Assembly (NCBI GenBank): GCA_947459205.1
Contig: CANHCR010000009.1
Coordinates: forward strand, 798 to 64,797
DNA from: Bacillales bacterium
Lineage (GTDB): Bacteria; Bacillota; Bacilli; Paenibacillales; CANHCR01
DNA length: 64,000 nucleotides
Direction: 5' to 3'
Shown: positions 3,017-23,486 of the stretch, piece by piece
Layout: each line of letters begins with the position of its first letter
How positions within the stretch are numbered: the first letter of the stretch is position 1
The notes under the pieces: generated by a model
Databases searched by the model: none
Seen by the model: the letters and a program-made list of their open reading frames with translations, nothing else
What the model was told of the DNA's origin: nothing
Position numbers and translations under genes: made by a program

Positions 3017-4393
3017 TCAGGTTCCTTCTGGAACTTGATCGGGCTTTTTTTCGATGGACATCGATTGTTTTTGCCAGACGCGCGAGCGCCAACGCATGAG
3101 CATCAGCAGTCCACGCAGCCATTCGTCGATGACGAATGCCAGGTAGATGCCGATAAGGCCCCAACCCATGGTAATGCCGAACAGGTAGGCGAGCGGCACG
3201 CTGATGCCCCACATCGAGAGGACGCCCATCACGACAGGGAATTTGGCGTCGCCGGTAGCACGTAGTGCGTTGATGATGACGAGGTTGAAGGTGCGGCCAG
3301 GTTCAAGGATGATGGTGATCAGCAGCAAGGTGGCACCTGCAGCGATGATGTTGCGGTCGTCGGTGAACAGGTCGTAGAGCGGTTCGCGCAGCAAGATGAA
3401 AAGCACGACCATCAGCGCTGTGATGACCAGACTCCACTTTAGACTGTCGAACATGCGGTGGTACGCTTCCTCTTTTTGACCTGCGCCAATCATTTGTCCG
3501 ATGACAATTTCTGTGCCTTGGCCGACCGCGATCGCAAACAACATGATGAACAACAACAACTGAAACGTGTAAATGTGCGTGGTGATGGCGGCCGTGCCGA
3601 GGAGGGCGATGAAGCCGAGAATCACCATTTGGCTCGTTTGCCAAGAGAGATGTTCGCCCGCGGCGGGGATGCCAATGCGCACGATACTGCGGATATTGTT
3701 CAGGCGCAGAAGCCAGTAATCGGCGGTGCGGATGCGGACGGGCAACCGTTTGTAAAGCATGACGATCATCACCACGAGCCCGATGCAGCGGCTGATGGCA
3801 GTCGAAATGGCAGCACCGGCGACGCCGAGTTCCGGGAAACCAAATGAGCCAAATATGAGCAGGTAGTTGCCAATGACGTTGAGCACGTTGACGCCGAGTG
3901 TGATGAACATTACGTCGCGCGTGAACCCATACGAGCGGATGGGTGCGGCGGCAGTGAGTAGGAGCGCCTCGATAAACAGTGCGCCACCGACGATGTTGAG
4001 ATACAGTTCGCCGTATGCGAGCAGCGATTCATCGAGCCGGAACAGCGAGAGGATGTAGGTGTCAAAAAAAATCAGGCTAAGGCTGACCAACAGTCCGAAG
4101 CCGAGGTTGAGTGTCAACGAGGTAGCCGCGACTTGACTCGCTTTGGCGTCCCGCTTGCCGCCCACGCATTGTGCGACCACCACCGTCGTCCCCATCGAGA
4201 CGAAGCCGAACAAGATGATGCACATGTAAAGAATCTGATTGGCGACACCGACGGCTGCGACCGCTTCGTCCGATACGCGGCTGAGCATGAACACGTCGAT
4301 GCTGCCGGTCGCAATGTGCAGGAACAGTTCGATGAAAATCGGCCAGGTGATGACGAACAGTGCAGCCGTGTGTTTGTTGAGTGGAAGTCGCAT
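3017..4393 (-). CDS. MATE family multidrug/toxin efflux transporter
   Basis: 458 aa, hydrophobic throughout (about 12 TM segments). The N-terminal signature (FIELFLHIATGSIDVFMLSRVSDEAVAAVGVANQI) and internal duplication are typical of MATE/NorM-like pumps. Confidence 0.9.
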   Translation of the reverse strand: MRLPLNKHTAALFVITWPIFIELFLHIATGSIDVFMLSRVSDEAVAAVGVANQILYMCIILFGFVSMGTTVVVAQCVGGKRDAKASQVAATSLTLNLGFGLLVSLSLIFFDTYILSLFRLDESLLAYGELYLNIVGGALFIEALLLTAAAPIRSYGFTRDVMFITLGVNVLNVIGNYLLIFGSFGFPELGVAGAAISTAISRCIGLVVMIVMLYKRLPVRIRTADYWLLRLNNIRSIVRIGIPAAGEHLSWQTSQMVILGFIALLGTAAITTHIYTFQLLLFIMLFAIAVGQGTEIVIGQMIGAGQKEEAYHRMFDSLKWSLVITALMVVLFILLREPLYDLFTDDRNIIAAGATLLLITIILEPGRTFNLVIINALRATGDAKFPVVMGVLSMWGISVPLAYLFGITMGWGLIGIYLAFVIDEWLRGLLMLMRWRSRVWQKQSMSIEKKPDQVPEGT

Positions 4394-4451
4394 CTGTCAG
4401 TCGATCCTTTGTCTTGGAGTATGTAGCGTCACTCCAAGTATACACGAACAA

Positions 4452-4479
4452 TTTGAATCTCAAAAATCGACGGTATAAT
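4452..4479 (+). promoter_or_regulatory. putative promoter for sbcDC
   Basis: TTTGAA (4452-4457), 16 nt, TATAAT (4474-4479), about 45 nt upstream of the sbcD ATG. An 8-bp inverted repeat cttggagt/actccaag lies about 25 nt further upstream. Confidence 0.45.
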
Positions 4480-4521
4480 AAGTTGTGAACAAACATTCGA
4501 AAGTGAAAAGGATGGCGGTAG

Positions 4522-5700
4522 ATGAAAATTTTTCATACGGCAGATTGGCATATCGGCAAAGTGGTCAACGGGATTTCGATGCTGGATGACCAGAAGTTTG
4601 TGCTTGATCAGTTCGTGGCGGATGTGAAGCGGGAGAAGCCGGATGTGGTGATTATTGCTGGCGATTTGTATGATACGGCTGTGCCGAGTGCGGCGGCGGT
4701 GGAGTTGCTCGATAATGTGCTGGTCGATCTCGTGATACGCAACTCAACGCCGGTGATCGCGATTGCCGGCAATCATGATAGTCCGAAGCGGATTGCGTAT
4801 GCGGCAGATATTGTAAAGGCGGCGGGTTTGCATATTGTCGGACCGCTGAGTGCGGAGATGAAGCCGGTAGTGCTGAACGATGAGCATGTCGAGGTGCATT
4901 TTCATTTGGTGCCGTACGCGGATCCTGTGGCGGTGCGCGAGTTGTTCGATGCGCCGGAGGTGAAGACGCATGATGAGGCGATGCAGGTGATTGTCGAGCG
5001 TTTGCGGGCGACGATGAAGCCTGGCGTGCGCCATGTGCTGATTGGGCATGCGTTTGTCACGCCGGACGGTAAGGCTGCGGACAATACGAGTGATTCGGAG
5101 AAGAAATTGTCGGTCGTTGGCGGTGCGGAGCATGTGAATGCGAGTCACTTTGCTGGTTTCGATTATGTCGCGCTTGGTCATTTGCATCGTGCACATGATG
5201 TCGGAAAAGCGCGCGAAGTGGGACAAGCACACGTTCGTTATTCGGGCTCGATTTTGAAATATTCGCTGTCTGAGGCGAATCACAAGAAGGGTTATTCGGT
5301 GGTTGAACTGCAGGCGGGTGGGTCGGTGCAGATTTCTGATGTGCCGCTGGTGCCGGTGCGCGATGTGAAGGTTGTGGAGGGAACGATTGCCGAGATTGAG
5401 CGGATGACGAAGTCGGACGATTATGTGTTTGTGACGCTATTGGACGAGGAGTATGTCGTTAATTTTGTCGAGCGGGTGCACAGTGTGTTTCCGAATGCGA
5501 TGAATGTCGAGCGCAAAAAGGCGCGCGAGCAGTTTTTGCTGACGCAGCACTCGAGTGGGCAGCGGACGAAGATGTCGACGATCGAGCTGTTCCATAGTTT
5601 TTTCGAGGAGATTATGGAGCAGAAGCCGAGCGATAAGATGGTGGAGATTTTTGAAGATGTGCTGCGTTCGCTGGAGCGTAAAGGGAGGGAAGACGAGTGA
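4522..5700 (+). CDS. sbcD: exonuclease SbcD (Mre11-like nuclease subunit)
   Basis: MKIFHTADWHIGK start, GDLYD, GNHD and GH..H phosphoesterase motifs. Overlaps sbcC by 4 nt. Confidence 0.95.
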   Translation: MKIFHTADWHIGKVVNGISMLDDQKFVLDQFVADVKREKPDVVIIAGDLYDTAVPSAAAVELLDNVLVDLVIRNSTPVIAIAGNHDSPKRIAYAADIVKAAGLHIVGPLSAEMKPVVLNDEHVEVHFHLVPYADPVAVRELFDAPEVKTHDEAMQVIVERLRATMKPGVRHVLIGHAFVTPDGKAADNTSDSEKKLSVVGGAEHVNASHFAGFDYVALGHLHRAHDVGKAREVGQAHVRYSGSILKYSLSEANHKKGYSVVELQAGGSVQISDVPLVPVRDVKVVEGTIAEIERMTKSDDYVFVTLLDEEYVVNFVERVHSVFPNAMNVERKKAREQFLLTQHSSGQRTKMSTIELFHSFFEEIMEQKPSDKMVEIFEDVLRSLERKGREDE

Positions 5701-8700
5701 AACCGATTCGTTTGACGATTGAGGCGTTTTTGGTGTTTAAGGATAAACAGGTGATTGATTTTACGAAATTGGACGATCACAATCTGTTCCTCATTCACGG
5801 CAAGACGGGTGCGGGCAAGACGACGATTCTCGATGCGATTTGTTTTGCGCTTTACAACAAGGCGAGCAATGATAAGCGACATGTAATCAATGGCTTCCGT
5901 TCGCCGCGGGCGAAGGATGATGTGCCGACGAGTGTGGAGTTGATTTTCGAACTGGGCGGGCAGACGTATCGCGTGTTCCGTCAGGCGCCGCATGTGCGTC
6001 AGGGGAATAAGAACGCGACGGGAGACCGCATGGAGTTCGGGCGGATGGTGGACGGCGTGTTTGAATCGCTCGCTGACCGAGCGAGGGCGACGGAGCAGAC
6101 GCGATTGGTTGAGGAAATGATTGGGCTGTCGTACAGCCAATTTTGCAAAATTGTGATGTTGCCGCAAGGCGAGTTTGCGGAGCTACTTGTGTCGAGTTCA
6201 GGTGAAAAGGAAGCGATTTTGCGCAAAATTTTCGACACGCATGAACTGAATTTGATATTGAAGGAACTGCAGGCGCGGCAAAAAAGCGAGGAAGCGAATT
6301 ACAAGATGACGCAGGGGTTGCTGAATGATCAGTTGAACAATGTGAAGCTGAACCTGAGTGACCGCGAAGGGTCGGCGCTGCAAACGCTGTTTCAGGCGGA
6401 AGCGGTCAATGTGCCGCAGGTGCTGGCGGCGCTCGAGGAGGAAGGGCAGTTTTTGCAAACGGAGGCGTCGGCGAAAAGTGCGGAGGCTGTGCAGGCGGAT
6501 GAGGCGCTCCAACAAGCGACGTTGGCGCTCAATCAAGCGGACGAGTTGGCGAACAGTTTTGCGAGGTTGGATGTGTTGCGGGAGCGGCTTGCGGAGTTGG
6601 CTGAGCAGGCGGAGGCGTTCGCCAAGCGTAAGGAGCGTTTGCAACTGGCGGACCGCGCGCAGGGGTGTCAGTCGGCGGAGGCGTTGTACGAGCAGGCGGC
6701 GACGGATGCGGCGGTGAAGGAGAAGTTGGTTGAGGAGCGTCGCGAGGCGTTGGCGGCGGCGAAGCAGGCGTCGCTGGATGCAAACGAGGCGTATAAAAAA
6801 GAAGAGGCGAAAGCGAGTCAGCGTCAAACGTGCGTGTCTGAGTTGGACCGGTTAGAGCGTTTACGTCCGGAAGTGGAGCGATTTGCAGAGGCGGAGCGGA
6901 CGCTGGAAGGATGGCAGAAGGATTTGCAAGCGACCATCCATCAACTTGCTCGAGCGGTTCAGACAGCGACGGAGCAAGAAACGGCTTGTGCACGGGTGCG
7001 GGCAGATGTGCTTGCTAAAGAGAAGGATGCCGATCAGTTGGGCGAGGTGATGAGTCGAGCGGCTGCGTTGCGTTCGGTGTGCACACTGTTGGCGAATACG
7101 ATTTCCGCTCAGGAAAAGGTGAGCGGGCATGATGCCGAGGTTGGACGTTTGCAGGCGAGGTATGACAAGTTGGCGGAAGCATGCAGCGAGCTCGAAGGGC
7201 GCTGGATTGCAGAGTATGCAGGGATGTTGGCGCAACATTTGCATGACGGCGATGCTTGCCCGGTTTGTGGCAACGCGCAACATCCGCAGAAAGCGCAGTT
7301 GTCTCCAGGCGCTCCATCTAGAGAAGAGGTCGATGCGAAGGCTTCCGAAAAAGCGGAGGCGCATGGCTTGTTGGTCGCTGAACGACGATTGCTGGAGGAT
7401 GCGCAAACATCTTTGACCGCGCTGATCGACGAGGTCGTTCAAGGTGGTTATGATGCGACGAATTTGGCTGAGGCGTTGCAAGAGATGACGCAAACACGAG
7501 CGGAGTGGGAAGCGAAAGAGAAGGTTTGCCGCGATGCTGCCGAGCAGTTGCAAACGCTCCGACAATCGTTGGTTGAGCACGAGCAGAAAAGCAAGGATTG
7601 CGAAAAGGCTGTTCGTGATCTGGAGAATGCGGCGGCTGATTGGCGAGTGAAAGTTGCCGGTGCGCAGAATACGGTCGATGAATTGAGCAAGCAGCTCAGC
7701 GAAGATTTGCGCACATTGGCGCAGCTGGAAGGGCGTATCGCTGAAGTAGAAGAGGAGAAGCGTGCGCTCGAGCAAGCGTGGAAAGCGGCACAAACGTTGC
7801 AACAAACGGCACAAGTGGCGCTCGCACAGGCAGAGACTGGTTATACAGAAGCGCAGACTCAGTTGAGCGAGGCACAAACGCGCAAAACAGAAACAGGGTC
7901 GGTGTTTGAAGCGGAGTTTCGTGCCGCCGGGTTCGAGACTGTGGCTGCCTACGGCGCTGCAAAATTGGACAAGGCTACGATGGACACCGAGCGCAAAGCA
8001 GTACAAGATTATGAAGGCGAATGTTCGAGCACGCAGGCTGTATTCGACTCGCTGAACGACTCGTTGGCGGAGAAACAGCGACCGGACGTCGAGGCTTTGG
8101 CTACCGAGGTGAAAGCGAAGAAAACGCTGGCCGATGAGATTGCCGAGCAAGTGGCTGCAATCCGTGACCGCATCAGCAAAGTGATAACGGCACAAACGGA
8201 GATTGCCAACAAACATCGTGCGGCAGAAGAGGCGGCGAGCAAGTACGGCGTCGTGTTCGAATTGTCCGAAGCGTTGAGCGGGAAGAACGAAGACAAAGTT
8301 GCGTTTGAGCGCTACTTGCAGATGGAATATTTGGACCGCATCGTGCATGCGGCAAACGATCGACTGCAGACGTTGTCGAACGGTCACTTTTTCCTCGTGC
8401 GCAGCGGCAAACGGGCGAGAGGCAATGCCAAAAGCGGTCTTGATTTCGATGTCTACGACACGTACACGGAGGAATATCGCCCCGTGCAGACGCTGTCCGG
8501 CGGTGAAAAATTCAATGCTTCGCTATGCCTTGCACTTGGGATGGCGGACATCATCCAGTCCCATGGCGGCGGCGTGTCAATCGACACGATGTTCATCGAC
8601 GAAGGGTTCGGTTCACTAGATGCTGACTCGGTGAACAAAGCGTATGAGACGCTGTACACTTTGCAAGAATCGGGACGCATGCTCGCAGTCATCTCTCACT

Positions 8701-8789
8701 TGAAAGAGATGCATGATTTGATCCCAGCCAAAATGAAGGTTCGCAAACGTTCCGACGGAACGAGCGAAGTGACAATCGATATTGAGTAG
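5697..8789 (+). CDS. sbcC: exonuclease SbcC (Rad50-like ATPase subunit)
   Basis: Walker A GKTGAGKTT, long coiled-coil, CxxC zinc hook (DACPVCG), signature LSGGE and Walker B MFIDEGFG at the C-terminus. Confidence 0.95.
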   Translation: MKPIRLTIEAFLVFKDKQVIDFTKLDDHNLFLIHGKTGAGKTTILDAICFALYNKASNDKRHVINGFRSPRAKDDVPTSVELIFELGGQTYRVFRQAPHVRQGNKNATGDRMEFGRMVDGVFESLADRARATEQTRLVEEMIGLSYSQFCKIVMLPQGEFAELLVSSSGEKEAILRKIFDTHELNLILKELQARQKSEEANYKMTQGLLNDQLNNVKLNLSDREGSALQTLFQAEAVNVPQVLAALEEEGQFLQTEASAKSAEAVQADEALQQATLALNQADELANSFARLDVLRERLAELAEQAEAFAKRKERLQLADRAQGCQSAEALYEQAATDAAVKEKLVEERREALAAAKQASLDANEAYKKEEAKASQRQTCVSELDRLERLRPEVERFAEAERTLEGWQKDLQATIHQLARAVQTATEQETACARVRADVLAKEKDADQLGEVMSRAAALRSVCTLLANTISAQEKVSGHDAEVGRLQARYDKLAEACSELEGRWIAEYAGMLAQHLHDGDACPVCGNAQHPQKAQLSPGAPSREEVDAKASEKAEAHGLLVAERRLLEDAQTSLTALIDEVVQGGYDATNLAEALQEMTQTRAEWEAKEKVCRDAAEQLQTLRQSLVEHEQKSKDCEKAVRDLENAAADWRVKVAGAQNTVDELSKQLSEDLRTLAQLEGRIAEVEEEKRALEQAWKAAQTLQQTAQVALAQAETGYTEAQTQLSEAQTRKTETGSVFEAEFRAAGFETVAAYGAAKLDKATMDTERKAVQDYEGECSSTQAVFDSLNDSLAEKQRPDVEALATEVKAKKTLADEIAEQVAAIRDRISKVITAQTEIANKHRAAEEAASKYGVVFELSEALSGKNEDKVAFERYLQMEYLDRIVHAANDRLQTLSNGHFFLVRSGKRARGNAKSGLDFDVYDTYTEEYRPVQTLSGGEKFNASLCLALGMADIIQSHGGGVSIDTMFIDEGFGSLDADSVNKAYETLYTLQESGRMLAVISHLKEMHDLIPAKMKVRKRSDGTSEVTIDIE

Positions 8790-8831
8790 TTTTTTGTTGT
8801 ATAATATCGATTGATGAGGAGGGAACACAAA

Positions 8832-9272
8832 ATGCTTAGTAAAATTGAAACGAATTCATTTGTGGGCGAGTTTGCGTTTTCGCTTGTCAACGAGCTCACC
8901 ACGCTGCATCCGATTCGGCCGAAGACGACCAAAACGAAATATAGTATCCAGCCGGTTGGTCTTGCTACATTCGGAGACAAAACAAAAAAAGTCGGCTATT
9001 TTTTGCCCGAACATGGCAGGTTGAGGATGGACATGGATTTTCCGTGCGGACGTTTTTCGCCAATTGAATTTTGCGCGCAATTCAACATTCCGTATCGCGG
9101 GGTATGCATGCCGCGAACAAAAACCGATTTTTCGAAGAGCGGCATCTATTACCGTTGTGACAGCACAAAATTCCACACATTCGTCTTTGTTTTCTACGAA
9201 GCAGATTTGCGCGGTGAAACGGGGAGCAGGATTCGAGAAATGCTTAGCACGATTTTGCGCGAAAGCGTATAG
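8832..9272 (+). CDS. hypothetical protein
   Basis: ATG 8832 lies 9 nt after AGGAGGG (8817-8823), within track ORF 8811..9272. No motif recognised. Confidence 0.55.
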   Translation: MLSKIETNSFVGEFAFSLVNELTTLHPIRPKTTKTKYSIQPVGLATFGDKTKKVGYFLPEHGRLRMDMDFPCGRFSPIEFCAQFNIPYRGVCMPRTKTDFSKSGIYYRCDSTKFHTFVFVFYEADLRGETGSRIREMLSTILRESV

Positions 9273-9292
9273 TGTAATCAGGTCATTGAGAA

Positions 9293-9330
9293 GTCCGATA
9301 TGCCATTTTGATGGTGTGTCGGATTTTTTG
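9293..9330 (+). terminator. putative rho-independent terminator
   Basis: Imperfect stem tccgatatgccat / atggtgtgtcgga (with G-U pairs) followed by tttttt. Confidence 0.55.
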
Positions 9331-9465
9331 TGCGTAACAGATTTTTGCCGGTGTGGGTACATTCGGAGGGCGGGCACGTGTATTTGGTGTTTCATCAGTG
9401 AAACTAAAAAACATAAGGTATATTATGTTTGGTCGTTAATATTAGAAAGTGAGGAGTGTTGCATT

Positions 9466-9879
9466 TTGACAGAGAGCGGATTGGATGACTGGGTTATCGA
9501 GTATGTTTTCCATAGTGATGAGCAGTTGCAGGTCATGTATGGCAAGTTTCGCAAAATCATAGACAATGAGGTGGATATCGATCAGGCTGATGAGTCTGAG
9601 TTCGTCAGCGATGATGAGATTGACCAGCACATCGCGCAATTGGTCGAAGCCGGCGCCAGCATCAAGTTGGACATCGGCTATGAGCAGATTGAGGCACTGT
9701 TGGAAAATCGAATCCAGATGGGTGAACATTTTGAAAATGATTCCCTGGAAGTCGGTGCATTCTTCAGCAAACTCGATGCGATGGTTGCTGCAGGGGCGAT
9801 TCGACCAGAGATTCACAATCTCTTCAATCGCAAGCAAGCGTTGACAAACAAGTATTTGACCATTTGGAATTTATATTAA
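9466..9879 (+). CDS. hypothetical acidic protein
   Basis: TTG 9466 lies 9 nt after GAGGAG (9451-9456). The long N-terminal extension of track ORF 9064..9879 crosses the terminator and overlaps the upstream gene. Product is Asp/Glu-rich with no recognised motif. Confidence 0.55.
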   Translation: MTESGLDDWVIEYVFHSDEQLQVMYGKFRKIIDNEVDIDQADESEFVSDDEIDQHIAQLVEAGASIKLDIGYEQIEALLENRIQMGEHFENDSLEVGAFFSKLDAMVAAGAIRPEIHNLFNRKQALTNKYLTIWNLY

Positions 9880-9892
9880 TGGAGAGGGAGTT

Positions 9893-10459
9893 GTGATTCG
9901 TCGTATGAATGTAACACAAATTCAGCAAGCGGATGTATTTTCGGTGAAAATGGAGTTGGCGGAGGCGCTCGAGTTGTTGACGTATTGCGCACAGCAAATA
10001 CCGACGCCGTGCCGGGCGAAGGTGACTGATGTGTTGGTCGATTTGCAGCATGTGACGCAACAGGCAGTCGAGTTTCGCTTTGAGCAACAGCAGGAGTCGG
10101 ACCTTTGGGCGGATTGGCTGGAGCAGAGCCATGTGCGCCATGTGCTACGAACGGGTTCCGATATCGAGGAACTCGAGGTGACGCGCGACGGACTTTCGGT
10201 ATATGTCCCGCTCAATGAGTTGGCGGTGATGGTCAGTCGCTTGTTGCGCGACGTGTACTTCGATGCGCAGATTTTGGATGTGCGCGAAGAGATGGTGCAC
10301 GGCGTCAGCGCTGGCGTGGAGTTGGACTTGGGCGTGACGTACCGCGGCGTGTTTGACCGAGCATTGTGGGAGCAAACGGCGGTATTTATCAGATTGGCAG
10401 TAGACGGTGCACGCTACGAGGAACGAATCGTAGAGGCGCCGACGGTGCAAGTAGTGTAA
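9893..10459 (+). CDS. hypothetical protein
   Basis: 188-aa ORF with a GTG start after GGAGAGGGAG. GC-rich codon usage matches its neighbours. Confidence 0.6.
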   Translation: MIRRMNVTQIQQADVFSVKMELAEALELLTYCAQQIPTPCRAKVTDVLVDLQHVTQQAVEFRFEQQQESDLWADWLEQSHVRHVLRTGSDIEELEVTRDGLSVYVPLNELAVMVSRLLRDVYFDAQILDVREEMVHGVSAGVELDLGVTYRGVFDRALWEQTAVFIRLAVDGARYEERIVEAPTVQVV

Positions 10460-10470
10460 TAAAGTTAAGG

Positions 10471-10518
10471 TGGCGCGATTTGGCTGTTTCATTTAGCCGA
10501 ACCGCGCCGTTTTTTTGT
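10471..10518 (+). terminator. rho-independent terminator
   Basis: ggcgcg (10472-10477) pairs with cgcgcc (10504-10509), with an inner stem (ttggct/agccga), followed by ttttttt. Confidence 0.6.
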
Positions 10519-10529
10519 TTCAGTACATA

Positions 10530-10781
10530 TTACTGCATCCAGGAACGAATTTCGTCTTCGCTTTCACCAGTTACTGTTGCGATCGTGTTGATGTCCGCAA
10601 GACCTAAACGTAAAATTTGAATTGAGAGTTTTTTTCTTCCTAGTTGGATTCCTTTTTGGTAGCCCTCTTGCATACCAGCAAGGCGTGCTTCTTCAAGTTG
10701 CTTTTGCCAAGCATTTTGCTCATTTTGAATCATAGCGGCATCCTCGCATTGTGGATTAGGATTTGACATTACTGTACCCAA
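10530..10781 (-). other. stand-alone copy of the Rpn C-terminal tail (83 aa): gene fragment or small partner protein
   Basis: AAMIQNEQNAWQKQLEEARLAGMQEGYQKGIQLGRKK..LGLADINTIATVTGESEDEIRSWMQ parallels the last about 85 aa of the upstream Rpn protein (AAMIENVQNAWQKKLEEIRLAGISEGEQKG..LGITDIPTISKLTGITEDEIRSWVQ). Overlaps its stop by 13 nt. Confidence 0.5.
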
Positions 10782-11842
10782 GATCGTATCTCATCCTCGG
10801 TAATACCTGTCAGTTTTGAAATGGTAGGGATATCCGTTATGCCTAAACTTAATAATTGTTTTGCGATTTCCTTTTTGCCTAGTTCAACTCCTTGTTGCAA
10901 TCCTTGTTGCAATCCTTGTTGCAATCCTTGTTCAACCCCTTTTTGTTCCCCTTCGCTGATACCAGCAAGACGGATTTCTTCGAGTTTTTTTTGCCAAGCA
11001 TTTTGCACGTTTTCAATCATAGCGGCTTCCTCTCCTCGTTCGGTTTGTTCGAATATGTCGTTGATTTCGTCACGGTGCGCACCGATGCGAGCGCCGAGCA
11101 TGACGCTGAGCCAAATCATAAATTGCCTGTACTGTTCGTCGCTGAACGTTTGCATTTGCTTCGCGATGAACCGCAAACGCCGAATGGTTTCCTCGGGATC
11201 GGTATCGATCGTTTGTTCGAGGTAGAAGGCGCTGCTGATGGTGTCGGATGCACGCGTCAGGATTCTTTCGCTGAGACGATGGACGTCGACCAAGACGTAC
11301 TCGATGGTTGCGGTTAGCGGTTTGGGACTGCTGACGCGAAACAAATCGAGGATGACGGTTTGCGGGTTGTGCCACTTCGGTTTACCGTTGTAGAGAATGA
11401 TGGGCACGATCATCGGCAGCGTGCAGACGCTTGCACTCGATTCGTCTTCAGACAGTTCGCGGATCGAACGGCGCCACTGTTCCATCGAACTTTCAAAGAT
11501 TCGCAGGCCCATTCGTGCATCGACTGTGGACTGCAACTCGAGCAGAATAAAGTAGAACGTTTGCTGTGCTCGATTACGGACGCGGTAGATGAGATCGCCG
11601 GTCGTTTTCGACAAATCCTTTTTGATAAACTCTGGGTTGACGGACAAGATCTCCAAATCGTCAATCTCGTCAATCTCGTCGATCTCGTCAATGAGCGGAT
11701 AGGGTACGAAACGGCGCATGAACTCGAGAAAAGTGCGCTTATCCGATAGTAGATGCTTGTAGCCGCTGTCGTGAATATGATAGGTAGTGAGGTTCGATAC
11801 GTACGGTGATGTCTCTTCGGATACTGCTGCAAGTTGCGGCAC
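10769..11842 (-). CDS. Rpn/YhgA-like recombination-promoting nuclease (PD-(D/E)XK, transposase_31-like)
   Basis: The N-terminus (HDSGYKHLLSDKRTFLEFMRRFVP), the IILYNG core and the helical tail are typical of this family. GTG start follows GAAGGAG. Confidence 0.85.
   Translation of the reverse strand: MPQLAAVSEETSPYVSNLTTYHIHDSGYKHLLSDKRTFLEFMRRFVPYPLIDEIDEIDEIDDLEILSVNPEFIKKDLSKTTGDLIYRVRNRAQQTFYFILLELQSTVDARMGLRIFESSMEQWRRSIRELSEDESSASVCTLPMIVPIILYNGKPKWHNPQTVILDLFRVSSPKPLTATIEYVLVDVHRLSERILTRASDTISSAFYLEQTIDTDPEETIRRLRFIAKQMQTFSDEQYRQFMIWLSVMLGARIGAHRDEINDIFEQTERGEEAAMIENVQNAWQKKLEEIRLAGISEGEQKGVEQGLQQGLQQGLQQGVELGKKEIAKQLLSLGITDIPTISKLTGITEDEIRSWVQ
10889..10936. repeat. 12-nt tandem repeat (tccttgttgcaa, about 4 copies) inside the rpn-like gene
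   Basis: Read directly. Encodes (QQGL)x3-4 on the minus strand. Confidence 0.85.
11658..11693. repeat. 9-nt tandem repeat (tcgtcaatc, 4 copies) inside the rpn-like gene
   Basis: Read directly. Encodes IDEIDEIDEIDD on the minus strand. Confidence 0.85.
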
Positions 11843-11900
11843 GGTGCGGACTCCTTCGCTCTATTTTCATTATACATCGCAAACCAAACTTCGATAACAA

Positions 11901-11912
11901 GAACATTTGTTC
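11901..11912. promoter_or_regulatory. candidate LexA (Cheo/SOS) box
   Basis: aGAACATTTGTTCt is a perfect GAAC-N4-GTTC core, 59 nt upstream of the rpn-like GTG start, with a TATAAT on the minus strand between box and start. Confidence 0.4.
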
Positions 11913-11973
11913 TTATATTACCAATAAATTTTATGATATGCAAATGTATATCTGAAATGGGCGGATTTAGCAT

Positions 11974-12372
11974 TTATCGGTTGGGAAGGTGATCTCCGCG
12001 CACGATGAACGTATGGCCGTCGGGGCTAATAAACAGTTCGTCTTTCTCCAAATCGAAGTAATCAGGTGAGATGTACAATTGATGCAACGCACTAAGGATG
12101 TCGTTATTGTACACGCTCCACAACGCCTCAAATTCGTTCGTTAGATGTTGAAGTTGGTGGTGCCGGATGTTGATTTCGGCGATCCGTGCGCGCATGTGTT
12201 CCGTTTTATCGACCGTAAGCCTGCCGATGTACTTTCCGTTCGCTCTGACCTTTTCGTCTCTGAGCGCCTTTTGTGCGTTCTCGATTTCTTCGAACGTACA
12301 CTTGGTAAATAGGTCGACAACGTTTTTATTTTTTTGACTCTGCGATTGCTTGTTCTTAGGCAAAAGATACAC
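11974..12372 (-). CDS. hypothetical protein
   Basis: 132-aa track ORF. A TTG at 12363 with GGAGG 7 nt upstream is the more likely start. No motif recognised. Confidence 0.55.
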   Translation of the reverse strand: MYLLPKNKQSQSQKNKNVVDLFTKCTFEEIENAQKALRDEKVRANGKYIGRLTVDKTEHMRARIAEINIRHHQLQHLTNEFEALWSVYNNDILSALHQLYISPDYFDLEKDELFISPDGHTFIVRGDHLPNR

Positions 12373-12394
12373 CTCCGGTTCGTTGGTCGAGCGA

Positions 12395-12731
12395 CTAGTT
12401 TTCTCTGACCAGTCGAATGCTCAAAATCTGATAGTCGGTACTGAGTTCAGCTGTCACACGCGACATGTTCATTCGACCGTCACTGCCAATGGGGATGTAG
12501 TATTGAAGGGTGAACATGTCACCGCTTTCATAGTGCATTACACGAACTTCGATCAGTCTGTCCATCTAAATCGCTACTTTGATTGTTGGTTGGGGCGACG
12601 TGCGATCGCCGCTCAAAGGGACTATACACCTGTTGAAATTTAAACTCTACGCGCTCAATCGACCGCTCGTAGGATGTCGGTTGATACCAGGATGACGGAC
12701 CGATCAAGCCGATCCGCGCCATTTGTTCCAT
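12395..12731 (-). pseudogene. possible frameshifted small gene, or two overlapping small ORFs
   Basis: Minus-strand ORF MEQMARIGLIGPSSWYQ..SSDL (part of track ORF 12528..12767) runs into a second frame, MDRLIEVRVMHYESGDMFTLQYYIPIGSDGR..LVREN (12395..12565, 56 aa). The two overlap near 12540-12565. Confidence 0.25.
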
Positions 12732-13309
12732 TTTTTCAACTTGCTGATTAAGGTAGCGCCGTGCCAATATTCGATTTTGAGTGACTCAGCTTCCGCTTTG
12801 GCAGGCGGCGTGAGGTCGGAGGTGGTGACGAGCAATGCGAGCACGCAACCGTGGTTCCGCTTGGCGCCGACCAATTCGCGAACGGTCATGACGCTTACTT
12901 TGTTGTTGTCGTTGTAACATTTGGCTTGGACGGCTGTTTTCTCGCCGCGTTTGTCGATGATGACGAGGTCGACCCCGCCGTCGTTGCCGCCGACGCCAAC
13001 TTCCTGCACTTGATAGCCGTGATCACGGAAATACAGAGCGAGCAAGCGCTCGAAATCGGTGCCGCTGATTTTGGACAACGAACTCGCGAGAATGACATCG
13101 TCGGGTTTGGCGGTTTTGCTGGTATCGCGAGTCGATTGACCGGTGCGACTGCTAGCGCTTGCTGATTGTGCGGATGAGCGTCGCGGTTTGCGGCGCTTTT
13201 TCTTTTTGAGCGATTGGTCGGCGATGTCTAGTAAAATTTTGAACACCGCAACTCCGGCTAGCATGAGGATAAATGTTGTCATGGGCATCGTTTCCTTTTT
13301 TTGTTTCAT
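12704..13309 (-). CDS. membrane-anchored Mrr-like (Mrr_cat) restriction endonuclease domain protein
   Basis: N-terminal TM helix, basic/Ser-rich linker, then FERLLALYFRDHGYQV..GGNDGGVDLVIID..AVQAKCY (the D..D/E-x-K core of the Mrr catalytic domain). Confidence 0.8.
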   Translation of the reverse strand: MKQKKETMPMTTFILMLAGVAVFKILLDIADQSLKKKKRRKPRRSSAQSASASSRTGQSTRDTSKTAKPDDVILASSLSKISGTDFERLLALYFRDHGYQVQEVGVGGNDGGVDLVIIDKRGEKTAVQAKCYNDNNKVSVMTVRELVGAKRNHGCVLALLVTTSDLTPPAKAEAESLKIEYWHGATLISKLKKWNKWRGSA

Positions 13310-13360
13310 AATATCATAAATAAAGAAGGAATTTTCAATTTTTTGTATAATATCTAATCC

Positions 13361-13843
13361 GTGGTCTATTATCTAATGTATGATAGAGAGGGTGGTGTTA
13401 TTCATCGATATGTTCAAAATACAATAGTATCTTTGGTAGCTTTGATGATTGGTGTGCTCATTTATTTTTTTGCTCGCAGCGAACAATTACTAGTTTACGA
13501 TTGGATTCCCGGCTTTTCTTTGATCGCAAACAGTATGAAAGGAGCTGCATCAGACTCAGGGTCATTGCAATTCTTGACGAACCAAACATGGTTCGTGTAT
13601 TCGCTCCCGGATGGTTTGTGGCTGTTCTCGTTTACATTAATAGCAATGACGATTTGGCAGAATGTTCGAAAACGAATCAAAGGAATTGTTGCGATCAGCG
13701 TTTTATTGTTTGCCCTCATACACGAAATCGGACAACTAGCAGATTGGTTTCGAGGGACCTTTGATCTCATCGATGTCATTACATACTTTATTTTTTGGTG
13801 TATCGCAACGATTTACATTAAAATTCAGGGGGATGTAAAATGA
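13361..13843 (+). CDS. hypothetical integral membrane protein
   Basis: 160 aa with about 4-5 hydrophobic helices. AT-rich. Start uncertain (GTG in track). Confidence 0.6.
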   Translation: MVYYLMYDREGGVIHRYVQNTIVSLVALMIGVLIYFFARSEQLLVYDWIPGFSLIANSMKGAASDSGSLQFLTNQTWFVYSLPDGLWLFSFTLIAMTIWQNVRKRIKGIVAISVLLFALIHEIGQLADWFRGTFDLIDVITYFIFWCIATIYIKIQGDVK

Positions 13844-14385
13844 AAAACAGTGTGAAAGTTTTGCTATCAATGTTTGCGGTTTTTGTGTTTTTAATGCTTT
13901 TGGCAGGAAGCAGCGAGTCTGATACATCTAGTTCAACAGACACCAATCAAGGAACTGAGAAAAAGTCTGCGTTCTCTATCGGAGATGACGTAACTGTGGG
14001 AGATTTGGCCTACCGAGTCGAAAGTTCTAAGGAAGCGTCTTCGATTCAAAGTGGTAATGAATTCATTGACGATCTCACGACGACAGGCAAATTTGTAATT
14101 ATTGACGTTACCGTGCAAAACAACGATAAAGAATCACGTTATGTGGACGGAGCAATGTTTAAACTTTTAGATAAAGACGGTGCGGAGTATAGTTCGACAA
14201 GTGAAGCGGACATGTTGATTAATGATGGAACTGGCTTTTTTCTGGAGAAAATCAATCCGAAAATGTCACGTAGAGGAAAGGTTGCATTCGAAGTTCCGGC
14301 CGATGCGACGAACTTGAAACTGCAAGTGTCGAGTGGACTTGGTTGGAGCGGAGGCGACTATGAGGAGATTTCGCTAGGCAACTAA
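13840..14385 (+). CDS. secreted DUF4352-like protein
   Basis: Signal peptide, Ser/Thr-rich linker, then a beta-rich domain (GKFVIIDVTVQNNDKES..GKVAFEVPADA) typical of DUF4352. 4-nt overlap with the upstream gene. Confidence 0.75.
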   Translation: MKNSVKVLLSMFAVFVFLMLLAGSSESDTSSSTDTNQGTEKKSAFSIGDDVTVGDLAYRVESSKEASSIQSGNEFIDDLTTTGKFVIIDVTVQNNDKESRYVDGAMFKLLDKDGAEYSSTSEADMLINDGTGFFLEKINPKMSRRGKVAFEVPADATNLKLQVSSGLGWSGGDYEEISLGN

Positions 14386-14414
14386 GGACAATTGCGATTT
14401 ATATTAGATTGCCT

Positions 14415-14445
14415 AAGAGCGCAGTGAAGTTGCGCTCTTTTTTGT
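14415..14445 (+). terminator. rho-independent terminator
   Basis: aagagcgca / tgcgctctt 9-bp stem, 7-nt loop, T-tract. Confidence 0.75.
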
Positions 14446-14534
14446 TTAAATCGAGAGGCAAGTGTAGTAGAATATATACATCTATGTTACAATTTTGGTA
14501 ACTGTATCTATTTTATTCGCAGCGAGGTGTCCCC

Positions 14535-17500
14535 ATGGACTTGATTAATAATATTGATCGATTACTCGGTGATGACTTGCGTCAAACCATTCGTCCGAAC
14601 GCAAAGGTATCGATAGCCGCTTCTTGTTTTTCTTTGTACGCCTATGAGGCGCTGAAGGAAGAGTTGGAGCAGATCGAGCATTTGCGTTTTATTTTTTCTT
14701 CCCCGACTTTCGTGACCGATCGGATTCCCCGAGAAAAACGCGAGTTTTACATACCGAAACTGACGCGTGAAATGAATTTGTTCGGTTCGCCATTTGAGAT
14801 TAAGTTGCGCAATGAGTTGACGCAAAAAGCGATTGCCCGCGAGTGTGCGGAATGGATTCGGCGCAAGGTGCAGTTTCGTTCGAATCGCACACAAGGGTAT
14901 ATGCAAGGCTCGCTGAATGTGCAAAACCCGTCGATCGATCCAACAGGAAACGTACATTATTTTCCGCTGAATGGATTCACGACTGTCGATCTCGGCTATG
15001 AGCAGGGCGATGTGATGATGAATTACAATAATAAATTTACAGACCCGTCGCAAACGCAAATGTTCCTCATGCAGTTCAATCAATTTTGGAATGATAAGGA
15101 GCGTCTTGAAGACGTTACGCAACAAGTGATTGAGCAGATTACAACGGTCTACAATGAGAACTCGCCGGAATTCATCTACTATGTGATTCTCTATAATATT
15201 TTCAGTTCGTTTCTCGATGATTTAAACGAAGATTTGATGCCGAACGATGCAACCGGTTTCAAAGATTCGGTGATTTGGAACAAGTTGTATCATTTTCAGC
15301 GTGATGCGGTCATCGGTGCGATCAATAAATTAGAAAAATATAACGGCTGCATTCTTGCAGATAGTGTCGGACTTGGTAAGACGTTCACGGCGCTCGGTGT
15401 CATCAAATATTATGAATTACGCAATAAGAGTGTGCTTGTCTTGTGTCCGAAAAAGTTGAACGATAACTGGCAGACGTATCGGCAAAATGTGACGAACAAT
15501 ATTCTTCACGCCGACCGACTACGCTACGATGTGCTCTATCATACCGATTTATCGCGCGACCGCGGTCAATCGAACGGGATTGCGCTCGATCGTATCAATT
15601 GGGGCAATTATGACTTGCTTGTGATTGACGAGTCACACAATTTCCGCAACAATGCCGTGCATAACAAAGATAAGGAGAATCGCTATCAACGGCTAATGCG
15701 CAAAGTGTTACAGAGCGGTGTGAAAACGAAAGTCCTGATGTTGTCGGCGACTCCGGTCAACAATCGCTTTAATGATTTGAAAAATCAGTTGGCACTTGCC
15801 TATGAGGGCAACGTAGAGGAAATCAACAAGCGACTCGACACCGACCGCGGTATTGAAGTGATTTTCAAACGAGCGCAGCAAGCGTTCAATGCGTGGTCCA
15901 AGTTGGTTGCGCACCAACGTACAACGGGCCGCTTACTTGAGATGCTCGATTTCGACTTTTTTGAACTGCTGGACAGTTTGACGATTGCCCGTTCACGCAA
16001 ACACATCCAAAAGTACTATAATGCCGCGGAGATCGGGCGCTTTCCGACACGGCTGACGCCGATTTCGAAGCAGTGCGCGTTGACAGAACGCAGCGACGAC
16101 CAAGATTATCAAGAACTCTTCATGAAGTTGAGTCATTTGAATCTCGGCGTCTATTCGCCGTTTCGCTATATTTTGCCGAGCCGGATTGCGAAGTATGAAG
16201 AGTTGTATAAAACGAGCGCGCAGGGTGGCAAAGTCAGTTTCAAGCAGTCAGATCGCGAACTCAGTTTGGTTACATTGATGCGCATCAATTTGCTCAAACG
16301 TTTGGAAAGTTCGGTGCATGCGTTTCGTTTGACGACGGGAAAAATCATCGCCCGTTTGGAGTCGACGTTGACGCAAATCGAAAACTACAAACAGCGCAAA
16401 CTTGAGCATACACTGACGCAATTTGAGCCGGACCAAGTGAACCTCGATGAAGATTGGCAGGACGAGTTGCCTGAGGATGCAGGCGCCGCGCAAGGTGATG
16501 CAATCGGCGGGAAAATCCAGATCAGCCTGTCCGATATGGACGTTCTGAGTTTGGAACAAGATTTACTGAACGATTTGCATCTGTTGCAAGATATTCAGAT
16601 CGTGATGCGCAAAATTACGCCCCCGCTCGATTTGAAATTGAACACATTGAAGGCTATGATCGATGAAAAAATCGCCCGCCCGATCAATGCAGGCAACCGA
16701 AAAATCATCGTGTTTACCGCATTCAGCGATACGGCAGAGTATTTGTATGAGCAGTTAGCCCCATACGCGTTGCAGCATCATCGTTTGCATACGGCAAAAA
16801 TTACGGGCTCGGATGAGAACAAAAATACGATGCGCGTGCACAACGACTTACATACGTTACTCACTTGTTTCTCGCCGCGCTCGAAAGAGAAGCAGTTGCT
16901 GATGCCGCACATCCAAGGCGAGATTGATTTGTTGATTGCCACCGACTGTATTTCTGAAGGGCAAAATTTGCAGGATTGCGACTTTCTCATCAACTACGAT
17001 ATTCACTGGAATCCGGTGCGCATCATTCAACGCTTTGGGCGGATCGATCGCATCGGTTCAACGAACGAGGTCATCCAGTTGGTCAATTTTTGGCCAAACA
17101 TTTCGCTCGATGAGTATATAGGACTGAAGGAGCGCGTCGAAAAACGGATGGTCATCATGGATATGACGGCGACCGGTGAGGATGATGTATTGACGAATAC
17201 TTCGAGTGATTTGGAGTATCGCAAGCAACAATTAGAACGCTTACAGAGCGAGGTCGTCGATCTCGAGGAAATGAACGCCGGGGTGTCGATAACCGACCTC
17301 GGTTTGAATGATTTTCGCATGGATCTGGCGAATTATGTGCAACGTGAAGGCGATTTGGATGGTACGCCGCTTGGTATTCATGCCGTTGTCCCGGCTGACC
17401 CGGAGAAGGGGCTCCACCCAGGTGTTGTGTTTGTGCTGCGCAATGTGAACAACGAGGTAAATCTCGATAATCAAAATCGTCTACATCCATACTACCTCGT

Positions 17501-17822
17501 CTCGATAGATAGGGAAGGCACAATCCTCACGACGCACCTTGAAGTCAAGCGCACGATGGATTTGTTGCGGGCTGCATGCAAAGACCAGTCGAGTCCGATT
17601 CGCGAGGTATATGAGGCGTTCAATCGTGAGACGACGGATGGCAAGAAAATGGATCGCTATTCGCAACTGTTGCAGGAAGCGATTCACTCGATCATTCATG
17701 TAAAGGAAGAGAGCGATCTCGATAGTTTGTTCCGCCCTGGTGGCACGGGCTTCTTGGTGAATCAGATTCAAGGATTGCAAGATTTTGAATTGATTGCGTT
17801 TCTCGTCATTCGGGAGGTGTGA
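14535..17822 (+). CDS. SNF2/SWI2-family helicase-related protein (R-M associated)
   Basis: Motif I ADSVGLGKT, motif II VIDESHNFRN, SATPVNN, and C-terminal HWNPVRIIQRFGRIDRIGS. 1095 aa. Confidence 0.9.
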   Translation: MDLINNIDRLLGDDLRQTIRPNAKVSIAASCFSLYAYEALKEELEQIEHLRFIFSSPTFVTDRIPREKREFYIPKLTREMNLFGSPFEIKLRNELTQKAIARECAEWIRRKVQFRSNRTQGYMQGSLNVQNPSIDPTGNVHYFPLNGFTTVDLGYEQGDVMMNYNNKFTDPSQTQMFLMQFNQFWNDKERLEDVTQQVIEQITTVYNENSPEFIYYVILYNIFSSFLDDLNEDLMPNDATGFKDSVIWNKLYHFQRDAVIGAINKLEKYNGCILADSVGLGKTFTALGVIKYYELRNKSVLVLCPKKLNDNWQTYRQNVTNNILHADRLRYDVLYHTDLSRDRGQSNGIALDRINWGNYDLLVIDESHNFRNNAVHNKDKENRYQRLMRKVLQSGVKTKVLMLSATPVNNRFNDLKNQLALAYEGNVEEINKRLDTDRGIEVIFKRAQQAFNAWSKLVAHQRTTGRLLEMLDFDFFELLDSLTIARSRKHIQKYYNAAEIGRFPTRLTPISKQCALTERSDDQDYQELFMKLSHLNLGVYSPFRYILPSRIAKYEELYKTSAQGGKVSFKQSDRELSLVTLMRINLLKRLESSVHAFRLTTGKIIARLESTLTQIENYKQRKLEHTLTQFEPDQVNLDEDWQDELPEDAGAAQGDAIGGKIQISLSDMDVLSLEQDLLNDLHLLQDIQIVMRKITPPLDLKLNTLKAMIDEKIARPINAGNRKIIVFTAFSDTAEYLYEQLAPYALQHHRLHTAKITGSDENKNTMRVHNDLHTLLTCFSPRSKEKQLLMPHIQGEIDLLIATDCISEGQNLQDCDFLINYDIHWNPVRIIQRFGRIDRIGSTNEVIQLVNFWPNISLDEYIGLKERVEKRMVIMDMTATGEDDVLTNTSSDLEYRKQQLERLQSEVVDLEEMNAGVSITDLGLNDFRMDLANYVQREGDLDGTPLGIHAVVPADPEKGLHPGVVFVLRNVNNEVNLDNQNRLHPYYLVSIDREGTILTTHLEVKRTMDLLRAACKDQSSPIREVYEAFNRETTDGKKMDRYSQLLQEAIHSIIHVKEESDLDSLFRPGGTGFLVNQIQGLQDFELIAFLVIREV

Positions 17823-17826
17823 TGCG

Positions 17827-18501
17827 GTGGATGCGATCTATCAGTTTCCGCGCACCGCATTTCTGGGGCGGACGATTCCGAAAAATAAGTTTTATCAAGT
17901 ATTGGAAGCCGACGAGCGGGTGAAACGATTTTTTATCGATTACATCGAGCGGATTGTGTTGCAGTTTAAACTTTCGCCGGACACGGTCAATCTGCAGTCG
18001 AGTCCAGATTTGGCGGAATTGAATGTATTCGAGATTCAATTGAAACGCGCAGACTACCCGCGCAAAGTGATTGAGTATATTGAAAAAGCGATTCCGTATC
18101 CGATGTTGCATGTGCTTCGCTTTGAGCGGCAGGTGCAACAAGTGATTGCTTACAAAGTGCCACATGCACAAAAACAGGGCGAGTGGGTCGTGCAGGCGCT
18201 GTATGCCTCTGAGTGGCAAGACGAGCGAGCGGTCATGATATCCTTGGACGGAGCGAGTTCGATGCGGGCACTATATGACGGTTATGTGAAAAAGTGGATG
18301 CCCGTGGCGAATCAAACGGAAGCAGTGGATACGGGACAATCGGTCGAACAGTTGTTTCACAAACAGCAAGAACTCGATCGCTTGAATAAGGAAATCGCGC
18401 GGTTGGAGACGAAATTGCGGAACGAGAAACAATTTCATAAAAAAGCACCAATTCTCATGGAGTTGCAGGCGCTGCGGAAACAAAGAGCGGAGCTGGGGTG
18501 A
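17827..18501 (+). CDS. DUF4391-like protein
   Basis: GTG 17827 lies 10 nt after GGGAGG (track start 17794 overlaps the helicase). Size, N-terminus (..YQFPRTAFLGRTIPKNKFY) and position between the SNF2 helicase and type III mod/res fit the DUF4391 context. Assigned from memory and context only. Confidence 0.65.
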   Translation: MDAIYQFPRTAFLGRTIPKNKFYQVLEADERVKRFFIDYIERIVLQFKLSPDTVNLQSSPDLAELNVFEIQLKRADYPRKVIEYIEKAIPYPMLHVLRFERQVQQVIAYKVPHAQKQGEWVVQALYASEWQDERAVMISLDGASSMRALYDGYVKKWMPVANQTEAVDTGQSVEQLFHKQQELDRLNKEIARLETKLRNEKQFHKKAPILMELQALRKQRAELG

Positions 18502-18632
18502 TCGGAACTGTATATGGGGAAAATTTACGCATGTTCAAAAAAATGTGTACAAAAAACGAAAAAAAATACTCATATAAAGGCTTTGCAATATTTTAAAGAT
18601 TGGACAGAGATCAATTTGGAGTGTGACCGAAC

Positions 18633-19562
18633 ATGAAGTTTATCGCGATAGATTTTGAGACTGCTAACCTGCGTGTTCGCTCTAGCGCCTGCGCATTGGG
18701 AATTGCAGTGGTAGAAAATAGTCGCATTGTTGAGCAAAAGTATTGGCTCATCAATCCTCAATGTGAGTTTGATGACTACTGTATCCGCGTACACGGTATC
18801 ACTCCGAAAATGGTGGCGAATCAGCCAACGTTTCGCGAACTGTGGCCAACCATCAAACATTATTTTGAGGGGACGAGCATGATTGCGCATAATGCCTCTT
18901 TTGATTTCAGTGTGTACAGGTATTGCCTTGCGGATGCAAACGAGACATCCCCTACTTTAAACTATTACTGTACCTATCGGCTGTCTAAAAAATGGCTAGA
19001 TGGTTTGCATGGATATTCGCTCGACGTCATCGCGGACCATCTGGGTATCGCGTTTCAACATCATCATGCACAGGAAGATGCGAGAGTAGCTGCGATGCTG
19101 ATGATTCACATGCAGAATGAACTGGGATTGACAGATTTAAATGCCTTGGCCGAACGCTTTGATTTCGTGCCAGGGACCGTACATGCTCACGGGTATCAAA
19201 GTTTCTCGGTGAAGAGCAACAAAACATCGAAATCGGGCTGGCAAAAGGTTCGAGCTAGTGATATAGTGTCGACTCATACTGAATTTGATGCTGAACATCC
19301 GCTATTTGGGAAAAAGGTTGTGTTCACTGGAACGCTGGAATCCATGACTAGAAAAGAGGCGATGCAGAAGGTCGTAGATGTTGGCGGGCACGTCCTGGAT
19401 AGCGTTAACAAAAATGTGAATGTTCTCGTGGTGGGTAGTTATGACTACCGGAAATTCCGGGAGGGGCATAAAAGTTCGAAACTAAACAAGGCAGAGTCAT
19501 TTATCTTGCGTGGAGCCGAACTGGAGATTGTCGATGAGCGTGATTTTTTAAGGTTTTTATGA
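18633..19562 (+). CDS. DEDDh (DnaQ-like) 3'-5' exonuclease fused to a C-terminal BRCT domain
   Basis: Exo motifs IAIDFETA, HNASFDFSV and HHAQEDA. C-terminal GKKVVFTGTLESMTRKEAMQKVVDVGGHV..VLVVG is BRCT-like. Confidence 0.85.
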   Translation: MKFIAIDFETANLRVRSSACALGIAVVENSRIVEQKYWLINPQCEFDDYCIRVHGITPKMVANQPTFRELWPTIKHYFEGTSMIAHNASFDFSVYRYCLADANETSPTLNYYCTYRLSKKWLDGLHGYSLDVIADHLGIAFQHHHAQEDARVAAMLMIHMQNELGLTDLNALAERFDFVPGTVHAHGYQSFSVKSNKTSKSGWQKVRASDIVSTHTEFDAEHPLFGKKVVFTGTLESMTRKEAMQKVVDVGGHVLDSVNKNVNVLVVGSYDYRKFREGHKSSKLNKAESFILRGAELEIVDERDFLRFL

Positions 19563-23474: not shown

Positions 23475-23486
23475 GGGGCTACGTCC

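Follow-up and report, generated by a model that had tools for sequence, protein, structure and literature searches.

Two overlapping genes of the Rpn (YhgA-like) nuclease family were analysed in a 64,000-nt stretch of contig CANHCR010000009.1 (assembly GCA_947459205.1, an uncultured Bacillales bacterium), which is referred to below as the window. The initial annotation of this stretch had described a 357-aa Rpn/YhgA-like gene with in-frame repeats of 12 and 9 nt, followed by an 83-aa open reading frame (ORF) that overlaps its stop by 13 nt and re-encodes a diverged copy of its tail. Both genes, here called rpnL and rpnSs, were recovered at those positions with their repeats by the ORF list, Pfam and Tandem Repeats Finder (TRF), and both lie on the minus strand, which the annotation had left unstated. 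The product of rpnSs aligned with residues 271-357 of the Rpn protein at 52% identity (BLASTP, E 1e-26). A third product, RpnS, is predicted to start inside rpnL. The features of the locus are collected in Table 1.

Table 1. Features of the rpn locus, in the order of transcription; positions are counted from the first nucleotide of the window.
Feature	Position	Strand	Description
Palindrome AGAACAAATGTTCT	11900..11913	.	GAAC-N4-GTTC core
Extended -10 TGTATAAT	11869..11876	minus	Candidate main rpnL promoter, read from sequence
Shine-Dalgarno of rpnL, AAGGAG	11851..11856	minus	8 nt 5' of GTG; anti-Shine-Dalgarno duplex -9.1 kcal/mol
rpnL	10769..11842	minus	Full-length Rpn/YhgA-like PD-(D/E)XK nuclease, 357 aa, GTG start (ORF list)
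9-nt repeat x3.9 (DEI)	11658-11692	minus	Encodes IDEIDEIDEIDD, aa 51-62; 92% matches (TRF)
Internal Shine-Dalgarno GGAGAGGAA	11027..11035	minus	6 nt 5' of Met275 ATG
rpnS	10769..11020	minus	Predicted internal-start product, Met275-Gln357, 83 aa, in frame with rpnL
12-nt repeat x3.7	10889-10932	minus	Perfect repeat, GLQQ units (QQGL), aa ~303-318; 100% matches (TRF)
rpnSs	10530..10781	minus	Stand-alone diverged tail copy, 83 aa from TTG, 13-nt overlap with rpnL stop
Hairpin	10472..10508	.	Common to the convergent 188-aa gene; RNA fold -22.2 kcal/mol, z = -4.6

PF04754 (Transposase_31/YhgA-like) was matched by residues 24-233 of the rpnL product (70.3 bits, cut-off 21, E 2e-19), the alignment spanning profile positions 3-198 of 203. 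In an alignment of 38 sequences (rpnL and 37 homologues) D83 and E102 were invariant and H24/D25 nearly so, and Q104 was invariant among the closer relatives. D25, D83, E102 and Q104 align with D11, D63, E82 and Q84 of RpnA-type proteins, with D83 and E102 spaced by 19 residues as in RpnA, and H24-D25, D83 and E102/Q104 align with the HD, SD and E-H-Q (E-x-Q) motifs of E. coli RpnE. Each of these four residues of RpnA is needed in vivo, and RpnA mutated at them loses every phenotype (PMC5350276). All four are present in the window protein; RpnE, by contrast, carries the annotation of an inactive nuclease. The full-length protein was modelled by AlphaFold2 (AF2) with a predicted local distance difference test score (pLDDT) of 78.9. 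A PDB sequence search with the Rpn protein and with the 67-aa form of the small protein returned nothing meaningful, and Foldseek comparison of the AF2 models of both proteins against the PDB gave no match at E <= 0.001, only weak likenesses to PD-(D/E)XK nucleases and helix-turn-helix motifs.

Within rpnL, Met275 is served by the best Shine-Dalgarno (SD) sequence of the gene and has the look of an internal start from which an RpnS of 83 residues would be translated. The anti-SD duplex of GGAGAGGAA (-10.9 kcal/mol) is the minimum over every position of rpnL, stronger than that of the annotated start, and Met275 has the strongest such duplex among all in-frame ATG, GTG and TTG codons. The internal SD and its ATG, at 11020, are conserved in the related contigs L103 and L104, which also keep the AAGGAG of rpnL itself. 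It had been proposed initially that the small downstream gene might be a genetically separated version of the intragenic arrangement; this idea did not hold, as the internal start of rpn is still in place behind the gene's best ribosome-binding site, and the downstream gene is thus an additional copy. The AF2 model of the tail consists of a 61-residue helix (272-332), which holds the GLQQ units, and two short helices (338-345 and 349-356), with pLDDT values of 74-93 per 10-residue block from residue 271 onwards and one block at 67. This predicted layout of one long and two short helices matches the published description of the RpnAS fold. The sole Pfam signal on the tails was a sub-threshold match to Yae1_N, a GxxxG-type repeat.

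Different starts can be considered for rpnSs. TTG 10781 gives 83 aa and has the SD-like GAGGATGAG about 11 nt or more upstream; it is probably not the true start. ATG 10769, which forms a TAATG overlap with the rpnL stop and gives 79 aa, is used in the gene calls of public assemblies, and a product from this first ATG would carry a 16-residue N-terminal extension unrelated to the Rpn tail. ATG 10733 is the homologue of Met275, has GAGGA 7 nt upstream, gives 67 aa and is called in one assembly. In the DNA alignment the tail homology begins ~12 nt 5' of the internal ATG of rpn (GAGGA[A/T]GCCGCTATGATT) and ends at the stop, and the ~24 nt between the rpnL stop and the beginning of the homology are unrelated sequence. 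This boundary indicates that the duplicate corresponds to the RpnS expression unit, that is, ribosome-binding site, start and coding sequence. The only gap in the alignment of rpnSs with the Rpn tail, 16 residues long, is exactly the repeat block, so that rpnSs has four units fewer. Its AF2 model (pLDDT 76.6) has helices at 6-55, 60-67 and 71-78, the same three-helix layout as the rpnL tail. There is no terminator between rpnL and rpnSs. The hairpin beyond rpnSs is followed on the plus strand by a T7 run, and it is a probable bidirectional terminator closing the rpnL-rpnSs unit.

The last nine codons of rpnL (10772-10798, minus strand) read GAGGATGAGATACGATCTTGGGTACAG, where L103, L104 and rpnSs itself have GAAGACGAAATTCGCTCTTGGATGCAG. 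These last 27 nt differ from all three by six synonymous changes and one Met to Val replacement; the changes create the SD-like GAGGATGAG upstream of rpnSs and lower the identity between the two direct repeats.

Across the 64 kb of the window no more than three tandem arrays score at least 50, and this 1-kb gene holds two of the three. The 12-nt array is situated within the long first tail helix, beginning about 24-28 residues after Met275, with a looser 24-nt array over 10878-10945. The 9-nt array encodes an acidic linker that joins the N-terminal helices to the first beta-strand, a region of low confidence in the AF2 model. The expectation of the initial annotation that the repeats could vary in copy number was borne out by comparison among strains, which gave four GLQQ units in the window, three in P0001/L001, one in P0002 and none in L002; the DEI linker also varies in length, reading IDEIDETAD in L002 and IDEIDE in P0002, with a longer variant in P0003. 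An alignment of L001, an ENA contig, with window positions 4001-17500 (reverse complement) covered 12,732 columns with 0 mismatches (99.906% identity), the sole difference being one 12-nt gap equal to one GLQQ unit. The exact 357-aa protein of the window was absent from the protein collection, where the 353-aa form occurred on two contigs.

Nonsynonymous (dN) and synonymous (dS) substitution rates by the Nei-Gojobori method were dN 0.24 and dS 1.36 between the rpnL tail and rpnSs (omega, or dN/dS, 0.18), against dS 0.72 and omega 0.10 between the tails of the window and L103, with omega of 0.10-0.12 for orthologous tails. With dS of 1.36 in the first comparison and 0.72 in the second, and dN/dS of 0.18, rpnSs predates the divergence of the window from L103 and has evolved under constraint during most of the time since it arose. 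The view of rpnSs as a stand-alone tail gene and not junk is upheld by this dN/dS and by the retention of its start and SD.

The distribution of the small gene was followed among relatives. It is present in two further contigs of one sample, L002 and L003, the latter with an in-frame 12-nt insertion (YFQI). L103, whose Rpn protein is 87% identical, is without it: right behind its rpn stop come the 12-mer, the hairpin and the convergent gene that stand after rpnSs in the window. In P0004 (65%) only 60 nt separate rpn from a convergent gene. From this distribution, rpnSs would either be an old duplicate lost in L103 or have been gained by recombination in the window lineage. Its protein is 51-62% identical to all the tails of the clade, without a closest partner. 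In L104 (59%) another tail copy starts 25 nt past the rpn stop. Apart from one additional LLEG unit it hardly differs from the tail of the L104 rpn, from which it clearly derives, and it is a separate and recent duplication.

A genome scan returned 80 more distant loci (<=35% identity); none of the 75 that could be scored had an adjacent small tail gene, and the arrangement is therefore sporadic and not a trait of the whole clade. Tandem full-length rpn genes were present in 5 of the 75, the second tail match lying 944-1352 nt downstream. A scan of metagenome contigs with the clade alignment returned distant relatives only (<=29% identity). A word-indexed search with the small protein retrieved just two close relatives, and exhaustive phmmer added about ten more stand-alone proteins of 80-133 aa that combine (G-x-Q-x)n repeats with the same C-terminal motif.

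As described by Zhong et al. 2023 (PMC10400941), RpnS proteins made from internal starts block the toxic RpnL, the number of four-residue repeats in the first RpnS helix varies among strains, and one extra 4-aa unit abolishes neutralisation for RpnC. The initial annotation had given the role of internal-start Rpn tails as antitoxins of the full-length nuclease correctly. RpnS is also described there as a separate gene, rpnSs (ypaA after rpnE and rpnCSs after rpnC); such copies are of independent origin, and deletion or fusion can remove them again. Tagged YpaA protein was detected; the E. coli counterpart is translated. The same paper reports rpn genes as enriched in defence islands, clustering with defence genes, and labels stand-alone RpnS as DUF4351 (PF14261) 'in some species' only.

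We checked the E. coli K-12 pair on sequence and found YpaA to be 75% identical to RpnE 244-299, with one extra unit (KLEG), and to start at the equivalent of the internal Met, 12 nt after the rpnE stop. The window locus resembles rpnE-ypaA in that an Rpn gene with an internal start is followed by a small gene on the same strand, which re-encodes the tail from the internal-Met position, and in that copy and upstream tail differ by whole 4-aa units. It differs in the uncultured Bacillales host and the sequence type of the tail, in the far greater divergence of the copy (52% identity, dS 1.36), which is four units shorter where YpaA is one longer, and in the TAATG overlap with the rpn stop and the unrelated 16-residue extension that would follow from use of the first ATG. 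RefSeq lists ypaA of E. coli K-12 (L105:3817-4002) as a pseudogene in spite of the tagged protein, and annotation of other genomes may miss stand-alone tail genes in the same way.

With the RpnA, RpnB, RpnC and RpnP2 L-S systems (PMC10400941; PMC5350276) the locus shares PF04754 with the D...D...E-x-Q residues, an internal start and ribosome-binding site heading a helical tail, strain-dependent variation of four-residue repeats within the first helix of that tail, and location in a defence island. Unlike these systems it has a second variable repeat, DEI, in a linker of the nuclease domain and a promoter with a candidate operator resembling a LexA box, and its tail repeats lie 24-28 residues after the internal Met as against 8-20 in PMC10400941. 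The small protein is comparable to stand-alone DUF4351 proteins as a small helical equivalent of the Rpn tail encoded by a separate gene, and several distant Rpn homologues have PF14261 in their tails. A further parallel is the TAEL repeat of EcoR124I/EcoR124II (cited in PMC10400941), where the copy number of a 4-aa, 12-nt unit in a helical spacer tunes specificity; TAEL, however, is part of a Type I specificity subunit and governs DNA target spacing, not toxin-antitoxin pairing.

We consider it quite likely, from sequence and family comparison, that the locus is an RpnL/RpnS antiphage module of toxin-antitoxin type with an extra downstream tail gene, rpnSs, placed in a defence island. By family membership, RpnL would be a DNA endonuclease that is toxic alone, and ribosomes would also initiate at Met275 to produce RpnS, the 83-residue tail. 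RpnL ends in an identical tail, with which RpnS would pair by way of its long first helix so as to block the nuclease, and slippage of the 12-nt repeat would lengthen or shorten this helix in RpnL and RpnS simultaneously. The small gene rpnSs would be an old duplicate of exactly the RpnS unit, co-transcribed with rpn and under purifying selection. Its product is four units (16 residues) shorter than RpnL/RpnS, a difference that may keep the two from pairing, and for this reason we regard rpnSs as more probably a diverged partner or recombination cassette than a plain second antitoxin for this RpnL.

Some observations weigh against this interpretation. No internal promoter was found 5' of Met275 by the consensus scan, unlike the reported E. 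coli rpn genes and the RpnA/B/C/P2 systems, and neither the rpnL tail nor the small ORF matched PF14261 (Pfam, E <= 0.01), unlike the DUF4351 proteins. The NCBIfam Rpn model TIGR01784 scored 33.4 bits on rpnL, under its cut-off of 52.1; the alignment nevertheless extended over its full length (24-354), and in our reading rpnL appears to be a divergent member of the Rpn family rather than a non-member. The published crystal structure of RpnAS was recovered neither by the PDB sequence search nor by Foldseek. By the one-extra-repeat rule, the product of rpnSs may not act on this RpnL. Finally, three of the last 12 codons of the small gene in L002, a low-coverage contig, are stops. They are either real pseudogenisation, by which rpnSs would be dispensable in at least one strain, or the result of a faulty contig or sequencing noise; they stem from a cluster of about seven substitutions, most of them to T, within 35 nt (L002:1180-1230).

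Under one alternative, which we regard as unlikely, rpnSs would be a fully redundant second antitoxin raising the dose of tail protein that neutralises RpnL. The two tails share the same predicted fold and a conserved helix-turn-helix-like end, the absence of a terminator between the genes favours co-transcription with rpn, and in L002 the Rpn tail and rpnSs are equal in length, both with 0 extra units. L002 is, however, the only case of this kind; the unit number of the downstream copy differs from that of the upstream tail in the window, in L001, in L104 and in E. coli rpnE/ypaA. The pair of the window differs by 16 residues in the dimerising helix and is only about 51% identical, and a single extra 4-aa unit suffices to abolish neutralisation for RpnC (Zhong et al., PMC10400941). 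The unit mismatch and this published rule of specificity together suggest that downstream copies may not neutralise their neighbours, and with four units of difference it is doubtful that rpnSs neutralises this RpnL.

The region upstream of rpnL bears on how the module might be controlled. The extended -10 TGTATAAT is invariant in L103 and L104; it was missed by the consensus promoter scan, presumably on account of a weak -35 hexamer. Between it and an upstream -10-like TAATAT (11915-11920, part of TTGCAT-17-TAATAT at 11915-11943) sits the palindrome AGAACAAATGTTCT, the GAAC-N4-GTTC core of which we take to be that of the Bacillales LexA (Cheo) box. The palindrome is kept in L103 and, as AGAACATATGTTCT, in L104, though the flanks diverge, and in L104 it persists although the protein there is 59% identical and another gene lies upstream. 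The promoter block as a whole, TTGCAT-17-TAATAT and extended -10 included, is likewise conserved in L103 and L104. In the window as a whole GAAC-N4-GTTC occurs twice against 1.2 expected, which is not significant. This element suggests SOS control of rpn, or else autoregulation by the helix-turn-helix-like tail proteins RpnS and RpnSs. The idea that rpn genes of Bacillota generally carry a LexA-like box was considered and rejected, as only 2 of the 75 distant loci have one (0.27 expected). LexA is not mentioned in PMC10400941.

These elements can be combined into a single scheme, which is speculative and in our judgement rather improbable as a whole. A LexA-type operator would repress rpnL-rpnS-rpnSs until the SOS response, and induction, e.g. 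by phage attack or prophage induction, would lift this repression. The length-mismatched rpnSs would serve as a cassette that replaces the resident tail and so resets toxin-antitoxin specificity, or as an autoregulator acting via the palindrome, and DEI would be a second, hitherto undescribed site of diversification.

Apart from such a scheme, the initial annotation had also offered that the small gene is the remnant of a second rpn paralogue, in the sense of a decaying, non-functional leftover of a tandem rpn with its N-terminal domain deleted. The tandem full-length rpn genes in 5 of the 75 distant relatives, the stop codons in the small gene of L002 and the pseudogene status of E. coli ypaA in RefSeq are in keeping with it. 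We nevertheless consider it very unlikely. The homology sets in ~12 nt before the internal ATG after ~24 unrelated bases, with no trace of an N-terminal domain, and a full second rpn was found at this place in none of the closer relatives L103, P0004 and L104. At dS 1.36 a dN/dS of 0.18 is near the values of orthologues, where ~0.5 would be expected for free drift of one copy; the 12-nt indel of L003 leaves the frame intact, and the E. coli counterpart is translated (PMC10400941). The idea that the 12-nt difference is an assembly artefact, the repeats being ordinary low-complexity coding sequence without special variability, is most improbable: although repeats can be collapsed by metagenome assembly and few assemblies exist, the array of 44-56 nt is under the 141-nt k-mer suggested by contig names (k141_..., from which the assembler is deduced) and would have been spanned whole, four unit counts occur across relatives of graded divergence, all in frame, and the same behaviour of repeats is documented for the Rpn family (PMC10400941).

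An Rpn module with a separate tail gene thus remains the preferred reading. Both the arrangement and the variability of the repeats were already published in 2023 (PMC10400941), and as the central idea appeared there the locus is a new example and modest as a discovery. It extends the Rpn L/S/Ss architecture to a deep-branching uncultured lineage of Bacillales; the SbcD protein of the window shares at most 55% identity with named proteins of Paenibacillus, Cohnella and Brevibacillus, which puts the host only roughly, close to Paenibacillaceae. It also offers an unusually clean natural case of repeat hypermutation, as one 12-nt unit is the sole change in 12.7 kb, which supports the tail repeat as a fast-evolving dial of specificity. 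Three side observations go beyond what PMC10400941 discusses, namely that the unit numbers of rpnSs and its partner usually do not agree, that a second repeat is variable (no mention of DEI-linker variation was found in the text searched) and that the promoter has a conserved LexA-like palindrome; they bear on how RpnL is released and on what rpnSs genes are for.

The defence island around rpn occupies window positions 12704-32399 and 34572-47723. It comprises a Mrr-like nuclease, a Snf2-type helicase with adjoining DUF4391, a DEDDh-BRCT exonuclease, an AbiLi-like ATPase, Type III Mod and Res, an EVE-HNH protein, a 1508-aa helicase with a MTES_1575 nuclease domain (a helicase-REase fusion), three consecutive genes for dynamin-like GTPases and a McrB-like ATPase (AAA_5 + Mrr_N).

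On the other side, three small genes without family assignment lie between SbcC and rpnSs at ~8.8-10.46 kb (8811-10459), on the plus strand and thus convergent with rpn. They encode 146, 137 and 188 aa by the gene calls of L001 and are conserved in L001, L003 and L103. The coordinates of the 188-aa gene (9893-10459) were checked directly; this gene, the only one of the three scanned, had no Pfam or PADLOC match. The 12-mer TGTACTGAAACA stands at 10516-10527 (minus strand), 2 nt after the rpnSs stop; it also comes behind the stop codon of rpn (L103) or of the small gene (L002 and L003). It occurs elsewhere as 2.7 tandem copies at 479-510 (plus strand), in the leader of an ORF starting at 447 or 523; the window thus holds three matches against 0.4 expected, and two of the three are this tandem pair.

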